Assembly: GCA_017522765.1 (NCBI GenBank)
Contig: JAFWYG010000005.1
Span: 138,826 to 202,825, forward strand
From: Clostridia bacterium
GTDB lineage: Bacteria > Bacillota > Clostridia > TANB77 > UBA1234
Length of the DNA: 64,000 bases
Reading direction: 5' to 3'
Positions 5,082 through 7,001 of the stretch are shown here, piece after piece. Position 1 is the stretch's first letter, and the number at the start of each line of letters is the position of its first letter. The position numbers and the translations under genes were made by a program. The notes beneath the pieces were generated by a model. That model was not told the DNA's origin. It worked only from the letters and a program-made list of their open reading frames with translations, and searched no databases.

Positions 5082-7001
5082 ATGTTTTTTAATTATCTTT
5101 TAATATTCATACTGATTGCTGGTTTATTCGTTTTTATTGGTTACTTGTTCTCAAAATCAAACAATTCAACGGTTATTCAGAACATTAAGAAAGAGGGAAG
5201 AATATACAGTGTTGAAAGAATGACAGAGTTCATTAAAGCCAGAATGGACGAAATAACTAGAACTAATTTATATGATGCCGGATTGGCTGAAGATGAATTA
5301 AAAAGAAGAAAAATGAAAAAATATGAGCTTAAAAAAGCTCTTAAGAACTGTACATATGGTGATGTAAACGATAAGAAGTATGTTAAGGAATTAATATTCG
5401 ACTTATTACATAGAGAGTACGGAGTAAACCAAGTTAATATTACAAATGCGATTGATTTTGATAATCCCGAAAAATTAACTTCTGGTGACAAGTTTGATAT
5501 CTTGCTTTATATGTATAAACAACAATATGCATATGATGCTTTAAGTGAACTTATCAAAAAGTATAATCTTGATGAAGAAAAATACGTATATGGTTCAACT
5601 CAAGCTTCATACGTTATTACGCCAGAAGAAATTAGTGAAATCTTCGAAAAAGAATATGATTACTTATCTTTTGAAGATAGATTAAACATTCTTTCTCAAA
5701 GAATCTATCAAAACTATAAAGGATTCAGTGTAATCGATGAAATAAGAGATATGAACATCGATGGCATTTCAGGTGGTGTATCTGGTCTTCCAGAATCATT
5801 TATGTACCAAGTTGCTCAATTAGGAGATTATTTAAGACAAACAAATGAAAGAACAATCCCAAGAGCTTACGATAGCGTATGGATATTCTATCATGGTAAA
5901 TCAATTTATATGTCTTGTGTATCTTTTGGATCATACTCAGAACTTCGTCGTGTATGTCAAAATATTTATAAGTACAACAATCCAGGACAATTATCTGATA
6001 CAAACGGATATAAAATCAATGAAATGAAAGATGGTTCCCGTGTCGTTGTAGTTAGACCAAGTATGTCAGAGTCTTGGGCATTCTTCGTAAGAAAGTTCGA
6101 TACTCCAAATGCGGTACTTGAAAACTTAGTTAGACATCCTGGTAAAGAACCAGTTATAGATTTACTTAAATTCTTAGTTAAAGGTGCCAGAGTTACTGCT
6201 CTTACTGGTGAGCAAGGTTGTGGTAAAACAACAATGCTATTAGCGATGATTAAATACATTTATACATCGCTTAACCTGAGAGTTCAAGAAACTGCGTTCG
6301 AGTTACACTTAAGAAAAGTTTATCCAGAAAGAAACATATTAACATTTAGAGAGACTGATACAGTTTCAGGCCAACAAGGTCTTGACGTTCAAAAGAAAAC
6401 TGACGGTGCTGTTAACATCCTTGGAGAGGTTGCAACTGATGAGGTTGCTGCTTGGATGATTCAAATGGCTCAGGTTGCGAGTAAGTTTACTTTATTTACT
6501 CACCACGCTAAGACGTTTGATAACTTAATTTTGGCACTACGTAACTCACTACTTAAAATTGGTATGTTCAACAATGAAAGAGTTGCTGAAATACAGGTTG
6601 TTGGTGTTATTAACTTTGAAGTACATTTAAAGAAATCTTATGATGGTCAAAGATTTATTGAAAGAATAACAGAGTGTATTCCTGTTAAACCAGAAAATAG
6701 ATATACACATGATTATAGAAATGAACCTACACTTGAAGGAAAATTAGAAAAATTTATGGATAACGCAACTGAGTACTTCACTAAAATCACTGAAACAGAA
6801 ACATATAAATCTGTTAACATCATTGAATTTATTGATGGACAATACGTAGTTAAAAATCCTATCTCAGCTGAAAATATTCAAGCTATGCGTGAGAATATGT
6901 CTGAGCAAGATCAACGATTATTCGACGACTTCTGTGAAAATTACTTTAGTACAATTAAAACAGAAGGTTCAAATTATGGCATGAGAAGAATCGTTGAATA
7001 A
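5082..7001 (+). CDS. CpaF/TadA-type (VirB11 superfamily) secretion ATPase with N-terminal transmembrane anchor and ~300-aa N-terminal extension
   Basis: Walker A is VTALTGEQGCGKTTMLLA. The Asp box / Walker B region AVNILGEVATDEVAAWMIQMAQVASKFTLFTHHAKT matches the CpaF pattern (IVGEVRG...L.A.NTGH.G...T.HAN). The N-terminus MFFNYLLIFILIAGLFVFIGYLF is a predicted TM helix. SD ggaaagggtga lies upstream. Confidence 0.7.
   Translation: MFFNYLLIFILIAGLFVFIGYLFSKSNNSTVIQNIKKEGRIYSVERMTEFIKARMDEITRTNLYDAGLAEDELKRRKMKKYELKKALKNCTYGDVNDKKYVKELIFDLLHREYGVNQVNITNAIDFDNPEKLTSGDKFDILLYMYKQQYAYDALSELIKKYNLDEEKYVYGSTQASYVITPEEISEIFEKEYDYLSFEDRLNILSQRIYQNYKGFSVIDEIRDMNIDGISGGVSGLPESFMYQVAQLGDYLRQTNERTIPRAYDSVWIFYHGKSIYMSCVSFGSYSELRRVCQNIYKYNNPGQLSDTNGYKINEMKDGSRVVVVRPSMSESWAFFVRKFDTPNAVLENLVRHPGKEPVIDLLKFLVKGARVTALTGEQGCGKTTMLLAMIKYIYTSLNLRVQETAFELHLRKVYPERNILTFRETDTVSGQQGLDVQKKTDGAVNILGEVATDEVAAWMIQMAQVASKFTLFTHHAKTFDNLILALRNSLLKIGMFNNERVAEIQVVGVINFEVHLKKSYDGQRFIERITECIPVKPENRYTHDYRNEPTLEGKLEKFMDNATEYFTKITETETYKSVNIIEFIDGQYVVKNPISAENIQAMRENMSEQDQRLFDDFCENYFSTIKTEGSNYGMRRIVE

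Follow-up and report, generated by a model that had tools for sequence, protein, structure and literature searches.

The ATPase gene and its predicted anchor

The window analysed here is a stretch of 64,000 nucleotides (nt) from a Clostridia bacterium (NCBI GenBank assembly GCA_017522765.1, contig JAFWYG010000005.1, positions 138,826 to 202,825 of the forward strand). It contains an operon that includes a gene for a CpaF/TadA-like ATPase. In uncultured low-GC Clostridia of the gut, this protein is likely to serve a Tad-like (type IVc-like) pilus as its motor ATPase, held by its own conserved, predicted transmembrane (TM) helix. Such an attachment is probably permanent and would keep one face of the motor turned to the membrane. 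An identical ATPase protein is present on 6 metagenomic contigs. The gene and the parts of its product are as follows, with model confidence given as the predicted local distance difference test (pLDDT) of an AlphaFold2 (AF2) model.

5062..5071, + strand: purine-rich element resembling a Shine-Dalgarno (SD) sequence, GGAAAGGGTG, read directly, 10-20 nt upstream of the ATG at 5082
5082..7001, + strand: open reading frame (ORF) of the CpaF/TadA-like ATPase, predicted to be membrane-anchored; ATG start, 639 amino acids (aa) plus stop
5082..5153, + strand: residues 1-24, predicted N-out/C-in signal-anchor TM helix (from hydrophobicity, conservation, charge pattern and AF2)
5154..5210, + strand: residues 25-43, short charged tether (KSNNSTVIQNIKKEGRIYS), pLDDT 56-59
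5211..5720, + strand: residues 44-213, enlarged helical N-domain in the position of CpaF NTD1 (AF2, pLDDT ~90)
5721..6101, + strand: residues 214-340, canonical NTD2 (invariant columns; CpaF alignment from residue 266-272)
6114..6713, + strand: residues 345-544, C-terminal ATPase domain (motifs, alignments, AF2)
6207-6233, + strand: Walker A GEQGCGKTT, residues 376-384 (sequence)
6495-6515, + strand: His box FTHHAKT, residues 472-478 (sequence)
6714..6998, + strand: residues 545-639, extra alpha/beta C-terminal domain, on the C-terminal side of the ATPase domain (AF2)

A preliminary description of this gene had reported an ORF at 5082-7001 that begins with a strongly hydrophobic helix, and both the ORF and the helix are borne out. 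The first 24 residues, MFFNYLLIFILIAGLFVFIGYLFS, are all uncharged. TM-grade hydrophobicity was judged by the Kyte-Doolittle (KD) mean over 19 residues, for which the usual threshold is 1.6. Residues 6-24 have a mean of 2.70 and are the sole strongly hydrophobic stretch in the protein, the next best segment reaching 1.09. The N-terminus therefore offers what is expected of single-pass proteins, an apolar stretch at least 19 residues long and hydrophobic enough for a TM helix. In the AF2 model a helix spans residues 2-38, with a pLDDT of about 90 for residues 1-20.

There is no charged n-region ahead of the apolar segment and no AxA-type signal-peptidase cleavage site in it, and because of this the helix resembles a signal anchor more than a signal that is cleaved. 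A cleaved signal peptide was rejected on the charge distribution and the length of the helix. It is quite improbable that the helix is translated without anchoring the protein stably, whether as a cleaved export signal, as a buried oligomerisation helix, or as a peripheral or amphipathic membrane-binding element. The AF2 model would allow for this, as it shows only a long helix at residues 2-38. However, a run of 22-24 uninterrupted apolar residues exceeds what an amphipathic helix would have in both length and hydrophobicity, and the positive charges come after the helix, not before it. The tether that follows is low-confidence, charged and linker-like, and an ATP-driven motor must remain cytoplasmic. 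We infer that the predicted helix is inserted into the membrane.

Start site and conservation of the helix

The preliminary description had allowed for a true start further downstream, and named residue 47 as the next in-frame methionine, which is correct. Translation from Met47 or another downstream start would make the hydrophobic stretch an untranslated leader and the ATPase a soluble protein. Met47 is conserved in the family, within a YTxExM motif, and about a fifth of the database representatives are annotated without the helix. However, there is no SD sequence in front of Met47, and the start site was compared across 82 loci. These are made up of 80 loci from a scan with one genome per species and two metagenomic contigs on which the gene of the window itself is found. 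The 80 scanned loci are all from metagenome-assembled genomes of uncultured Clostridia from human, rabbit, chicken, deer and ruminant guts.

The helix is encoded in frame at all 82 loci, with an open frame and a start codon directly before it, and the homologs do not begin downstream of the hydrophobic segment. The start is an ATG with a GGAGG-type SD sequence directly ahead of the helix in 80 of the loci, and in the remaining two the helix is in frame behind GTG or TTG. Over codons 1-24 of five orthologs, the differences at codon positions 1, 2 and 3 number 41, 22 and 70, and 41 codon changes are synonymous. The concentration of substitutions at third positions and the synonymous changes indicate that the helix segment evolves as coding sequence. 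Across the 82 loci, the stretch before the helix has a mean of 0.33 lysine and arginine residues and the 15 residues that follow have a mean of 3.9. Under the positive-inside rule, such a pattern predicts an N-out/C-in topology, with the ATPase domain in the cytoplasm as its chemistry requires. On this evidence the N-terminal helix is real: it is translated and conserved, and its flanking charges are asymmetric in the right sense.

Nearly all full-length entries among the 120 database homologs closest to the window ATPase (65-99% identity) start with an apolar helix. The sequence of the helix diverges among the homologs and its hydrophobicity is retained. The family is large, with more than 7600 homolog clusters at 90% identity, of 630-660 aa, among the scored candidates. 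An exhaustive search of the representatives of 50%-identity clusters identified 1145 clusters at E values up to 0.001 and 359 at E values up to 1e-30. Besides 126 of the cluster representatives (50% identity), a set of 129 sequences of at least 540 aa included the window protein itself along with two closer homologs. The helix is found in 103 of the 129, down to approximately 30% identity, so that the hydrophobicity persists where the sequence has diverged to that level. The tether across the 103 representatives has a median length of 17 aa (range 13-28) and is rich in E, K and D.

Four sporadic representatives without the helix were traced to their contigs, where three are gene-caller truncations and one, P0145, is genuine. 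In the three truncated cases (P0126, P0178 and P0250) the annotated start is preceded by an in-frame helix, which itself follows a strong SD sequence. Gene callers have therefore repeatedly cut off the helix, and the databases under-report the anchor. The start-site artefact was rejected on the in-frame helix at 82 of 82 loci, the coding-type substitutions and the truncated database calls, and a soluble ATPase that starts downstream is considered highly improbable, more so than any of the other alternatives.

The truncated ATPase calls are at L084 595-690, L088 2694-2802 and L089 2461-2545, where an internal start removed the TM helix. In one truncated locus the true start may be a non-canonical ATA or ATT. 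Asn4 (5091-5093) comes directly ahead of the TM helix. An Asn in this place, at a distance of two to five residues from the N-terminus, is shared by 56 of 62 diverse members, whereas the sequence of the helix is not conserved.

Domain organization and family of the ATPase

The AF2 model was built on 62 diverse homologs and has a pLDDT of 87.2 and a predicted template modelling score of 0.75. The predicted fold has the bilobed NTD2 and the RecA-like C-terminal domain of this class of ATPase, and a Foldseek search with the model places CpaF among the best structural matches (E 1.8e-19). The N-domain is modelled as helices at residues 44-160 and a sub-domain at 166-212, and residues 44-213 have no sequence match to CpaF. 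NTD2 contains an insertion at 236-262, which is disordered at 252-256 in the model, as well as an invariant IDGxSGGVSG motif and a hinge-like KGxG motif. The stretch KGxGVIDELRDMxIDGxSGGVSG at 213-236 is nearly invariant across the family. As judged from the sequence pattern, the KGxG...SGGVSG motif is probably the equivalent of the CpaF G147/G149 hinge and the start of NTD2.

The Walker A and the His box given in the preliminary description are both present as reported. The Asp box is formed by E403/E407 and the Walker B by E449. Among the 62 diverse family members E403/E407, E449 and H475 are invariant or nearly so, and the family-invariant residues are G381/K382, E407, E449, H475 and the NTD arginines R290, R320 and R337. 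With its catalytic residues invariant, the enzyme is presumably active.

The C-terminal domain is modelled as helices at 551-571, 596-605 and 608-628 and strands at 575-584 and 587-590. The family has a median of 87 aa after the ATPase core, and the alignment to CpaF stops at residue 451 of CpaF's 501. The lineage-specific additions are the anchor and tether (approximately 43 aa), the N-domain of approximately 170 aa, the NTD2 insertion and approximately 45 extra C-terminal residues. The N-terminal extension of about 300 aa in the preliminary description is therefore partly right: the TM helix and the enlarged N-domain are genuine, and roughly 125 aa of it is ordinary NTD2. In other respects the preliminary reading is supported.

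When searched against the PDB, the family profile finds CpaF first (E 2.3e-27), followed by FlaI, archaeal GspE, VirB11, PilT, GspE and PilB. The nearest relatives are CpaF/TadA, not PilB, PilT, GspE or VirB11, although the identity between the window ATPase and CpaF is only approximately 18%. The Pfam T2SSE family (PF00437) is matched by 52 of the 62 family members, with a best E value of 6.2e-13. In NCBIfam the ATPase falls outside all curated equivalogs, with all scores far under their cut-offs; the best match is TIGR03819 ('TadA family conjugal transfer-associated ATPase') at 26.7 bits with a cut-off of 373. On these comparisons the ATPase is a very divergent PilT/VirB11-like protein, in a large and deep-branching subfamily of CpaF/TadA.

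The surrounding operon

The other genes of the operon are as follows.

2114..3436, + strand: CpaB/RcpC-like protein with a SAF domain and one TM segment (PF08666 SAF, E 5.9e-6)
3452-4192, + strand: soluble 246-aa protein in the TadZ/CpaE position (synteny)
4215-5036, + strand: soluble 273-aa protein in the TadZ/CpaE position (synteny)
7049..9391, + strand: 780-aa polytopic membrane protein with 8 hydrophobic segments, presumed TadC-TadB-type platform (TM map, position, PMC11680825)
9566..12854, + strand: five genes, the products of which each have one N-terminal hydrophobic helix (TM map), comprising the next two lines
9566-9970 and 10123-10536, + strand: pilin-like genes (recurrent N-terminus)
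10558-11097, 11114-11614 and 11652-12854, + strand: further single-helix genes (TM map)

The order of cpaB-like gene, two small proteins, ATPase, 8-TM protein and pilin-like genes is kept in the related loci where the contig is long enough. The same gene order is found around an ATPase homolog of 30% identity. Among species-level loci the ATPase is by far the best conserved of the products, at 63-87% identity versus 25-45% for most of its neighbours. The operon is co-directional and is flanked by housekeeping genes, these being a class-V aminotransferase gene, murC, spoVG and uvrC. Downstream of uvrC is a 518-aa ORF (16874-18430), which has a weak DnaB_C match on the corresponding metagenomic contig.

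The CpaB-like protein matches TIGR03177 CpaB with an E value of 3.5e-9, under the cut-off. A Walker A is not recognisable at the N-terminus of either protein in the TadZ position (MKCIGFIGKVDKTD..., MPIVAFWSTEDSAQ...), and if they are ParA/MinD-folded they may be degenerate. The 780-aa protein is presumed to be the platform from its position, its eight TM segments and the cluster described in PMC11680825; it has no sequence match in the PDB. A length of 780 aa for this gene (start 7049, with an extra N-terminal TM helix) is likelier than the 742-aa call on a metagenomic contig, because its homologs are 780-789 aa. The best-conserved stretch of the presumed platform (approximately residues 157-240, EKYYDVAPNRFLK.FAG.SYLTKEFGDR) is also the least confidently modelled.

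The N-terminus of the pilin-like proteins, M(E/D)NA(S/A)KAL(I/M)(I/M)AG(G/A)(I/V)L..., is almost invariant, and there are two to five paralogs per operon. Orthologous pilin-like genes are found in twelve of the related loci (L003, L006, L008, L010, L014, L018, L025, L037, L040, L054, L063 and L070). The N-termini are without the G/xxxxEY motif of Flp and without Glu5. Their K/R-A-L/M junction resembles an archaeal class III cleavage site.

It is possible, if unlikely, that the protein is an anchored traffic ATPase of a conjugation or secretion apparatus, in which the 'pilins' would form a short pseudopilus or a DNA-transfer conduit. The name of its best NCBIfam match is in keeping with such a role, although the score is far under the cut-off, and so are the non-canonical pilin-like N-termini and the lack of a prepilin peptidase gene in the window. 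In addition, a clade of the family that lacks the helix adjoins genes for VirB4-like AAA_10 proteins and cell-wall hydrolases, which are typical of Gram-positive conjugation modules. However, the window operon lies between housekeeping genes and is without VirB4, relaxase or hydrolase genes. Its gene order is kept in the chromosomes of approximately 80 species, and it includes a CpaB-like gene and several pilin-like genes. A syntenic cluster in TANB77 has been read as encoding a pilus, and a pilin-like protein from it has been studied (PMC11680825). A conjugation or secretion role is less likely for the window operon because of this chromosomal housekeeping context and because transfer genes are absent.

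A pilus operon with an anchored motor therefore remains the preferred reading, and there are several findings that weigh against it. The window ATPase itself matches PF00437 with an E value of 0.0047 and 16.1 bits, under the gathering score of 24.9. The 246-aa and 273-aa proteins have no Pfam or NCBIfam match, and the second of them has no sequence match in the PDB. For the presumed platform, no T2SSF match was found in 23 orthologs, the AF2 model is poor (pLDDT 63) and a Foldseek search with that model returned only noise. No prepilin peptidase was found in the 64-kb window by a GxGD motif scan and a scan for multi-TM ORFs; either the peptidase, if any, is encoded elsewhere or the pilin-like proteins are unprocessed. 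Lastly, the 18 representatives without the helix form one contiguous block in a neighbour-joining ordering of the core domains. The anchor is typical of the family, and the existence of this contiguous clade within it means that the anchor is not essential to the function of the fold.

Family members without the helix

In three members of the helix-less block that were checked, a stop codon lies directly upstream of the start. Two members of this clade, P0149 and P0137, are from loci L085 (around 1-17887) and L086 (around 1-10657), where the operon layout is similar. The neighbours at these two loci are genes for a VirB4-like AAA_10 ATPase and for Glucosaminidase or SLT/NLPC_P60 cell-wall hydrolases, which suggests a Tad-like filament module joined to Gram-positive conjugative elements. 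Another genuinely helix-less protein, P0145 (L090 1-9973), is encoded beside fliD, fliS, flgN and a Ser/Thr protein kinase gene, and the upstream CpaB-like and TadZ-like genes are not present at this locus.

A proposed tethered motor and its possible orientation lock

The PilT/VirB11-like ATPases of pili and secretion systems are treated as soluble hexamers that dock reversibly on a membrane platform. Models of motor recruitment, exchange and inversion depend upon the motor being free and soluble. The soluble CpaF of Caulobacter is believed to be recruited through the platform proteins CpaG/CpaH. Membrane-associated CpaE dimers surround it in a ring, and it is nearer to the membrane in the piliated state (PMC13170226).

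In the window ATPase, the predicted N-terminal helix would insert with its N-terminus out and its C-terminus in, leaving the ATPase domain in the cytoplasm. A charged tether of approximately 17-20 aa would link the helix to the enlarged N-domain, and six such tethers would hold the hexamer at the membrane. They would also fix the N-terminal face, which is the platform-binding and extension face, towards the membrane. The fused helix may thereby replace the recruiting and stator role that separate proteins have elsewhere, namely the platform with CpaE in Caulobacter and bitopic partners of the GspL/PilM type in other systems. Together, the tether and the C-terminal domain may lock the motor in one orientation, and under the ATPase-inversion model a locked motor would be extension-only.

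The inversion model is from a preprint, which proposes that CpaF flips over in order to retract pili and then docks on the platform with its C-terminal face (10.64898/2026.02.24.707734). Either an R387A change or a C-terminal mCherry fusion on CpaF abolishes visible retraction, some Tad motors are called "single-orientation", and membrane tethers are not considered (10.64898/2026.02.24.707734).

An orientation-locked Tad motor is put forward tentatively, as the less probable part of the interpretation. The tethers on the N-face and the bulky C-terminal domain on the opposite face might bar the hexamer from flipping, the pilus might be extension-only or retracted independently of the motor, and the six helices might form a stator cage round the platform. 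What suggests this is that the tether is short and constrained in length, that the equivalent of R387 is mostly acidic and that there is a natural domain of approximately 95 aa after the ATPase domain. CpaF P386/R387, a motif on the C-terminal face, align to F479/D480, R387 being opposite D480, and the window ATPase thus lacks this retraction determinant. Of the 62 family sequences, 16 have E at position 480, 13 have D, 7 have P and 5 have R. Two points count against the lock. The residues of the beta13-beta14 turn that are tied to retraction in the preprint, G522/R524, are conserved in the family, and the argument is drawn from the model in the preprint and from an assumed geometry.

A conserved anchored subfamily would mean that a motor of this kind can work while permanently tethered, with its N-face predicted to be towards the membrane, and this would surprise specialists who treat these ATPases as soluble. 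A tethered ring cannot spin freely, which constrains the choice between rotary and gyratory models. The anchored family also provides a naturally occurring negative control for the model of retraction by inversion. If the orientation lock is true, it would be a natural test of that model with a design that could be transplanted onto CpaF, and the abundant pili of gut Clostridia would be extension-only or retracted independently of the motor. A link to immunotherapy response has been described for the TANB77 lineage and its pilus cluster (PMC11680825), so the mechanism by which the pilus is assembled is of some applied interest.

Comparison with known systems

In the CpaF of C. crescentus, residues 1-79 are disordered, residues 80-149 form a three-helix NTD1, and a Gly-x-Gly hinge (G147/G149) is followed by NTD2 and a C-terminal domain (PMC11300603, PMC12019362). 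A phylogenetic survey of 292 CpaF orthologs recognised three architecture classes. These are 3HB-NTD-CAD, that arrangement with an added intrinsically disordered region (IDR), and that arrangement with FHA and an IDR, and no class is membrane-anchored (PMC12019362). The window ATPase fits none of these and is better regarded as a variant than as a canonical member, and the anchored ATPases add a fourth architecture class to the survey. CpaF/TadA proteins such as Caulobacter CpaF (PDB 8RJF/8RKD/9E24) and Aggregatibacter TadA are soluble, whereas the window ATPase has a TM helix and tether. In place of the 70-aa three-helix bundle of CpaF it has the N-domain of approximately 170 aa, together with an NTD2 insertion of approximately 27 aa and a longer C-terminal domain, and the CpaF retraction residue R387 is not conserved.

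A close counterpart is the conserved pilus cluster of the uncultured order TANB77 (Nat Commun 2024). In Table 1 of that study, protein 930 is listed as a TadA/CpaF of 640 aa with one transmembrane helix (TMH) and protein 931 as having 8 TMH with TadC/TadB halves, and the syntenic small proteins were called TadZ/CpaE by structural homology (PMC11680825). This cluster matches that of the window in gene order and is similar in gene sizes: a CpaB-like gene comes first, then two TadZ/CpaE-like genes, the gene for an ATPase of 640 aa and one TMH, that for a platform with 8 TMH, and lastly pilin-like genes. Both clusters are from uncultured gut Clostridia. Compared by description, protein 930 and the window ATPase appear to be orthologs on synteny and size. 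The TMH of protein 930 is tabulated there without discussion of the helix, its start codon, its conservation, its topology or its mechanism (PMC11680825). In the searchable full-text literature no paper was found that treats a TM-anchored type IV pilus ATPase. The anchored architecture has thus been tabulated once and never analysed.

The 'single-orientation' Tad motor of Corynebacterium diphtheriae is like the window ATPase in that an R387-type determinant has been lost and the C-terminal region is altered (10.64898/2026.02.24.707734). Motors of that type are soluble and their single orientation was deduced from AlphaFold3 models and sequence decay, whereas in the window ATPase a membrane tether would enforce it physically. 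The hexameric translocation ATPases of the FtsK/HerA-VirD4 group (VirD4/TrwB, FtsK/SpoIIIE and EssC) also have an N-terminal TM anchor. These are of a different superfamily and function, and the likeness is one of analogy, not of homology of the anchor.

In systems of the GspE-GspL type the anchor is a separate polypeptide, which binds the ATPase's N1 domain reversibly. The pairs GspE-GspL (type II secretion), PilB-PilM/PilN (type IVa pili), and TcpT-TcpR and BfpD-BfpC (type IVb pili) are like the window ATPase in that a PilT/VirB11-like hexamer is held at the membrane via a single-pass helix and a contact with the cytoplasmic N-domain. GspL, PilM/N and TcpR are the separate, bitopic proteins that hold the ATPase in these other type IV filament systems (PMC10191384). 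Compared with the GspL and PilM types of pair, the anchor of the window ATPase is fused to the motor, and it is predicted that the stoichiometry is thereby fixed at six and the attachment is permanent.

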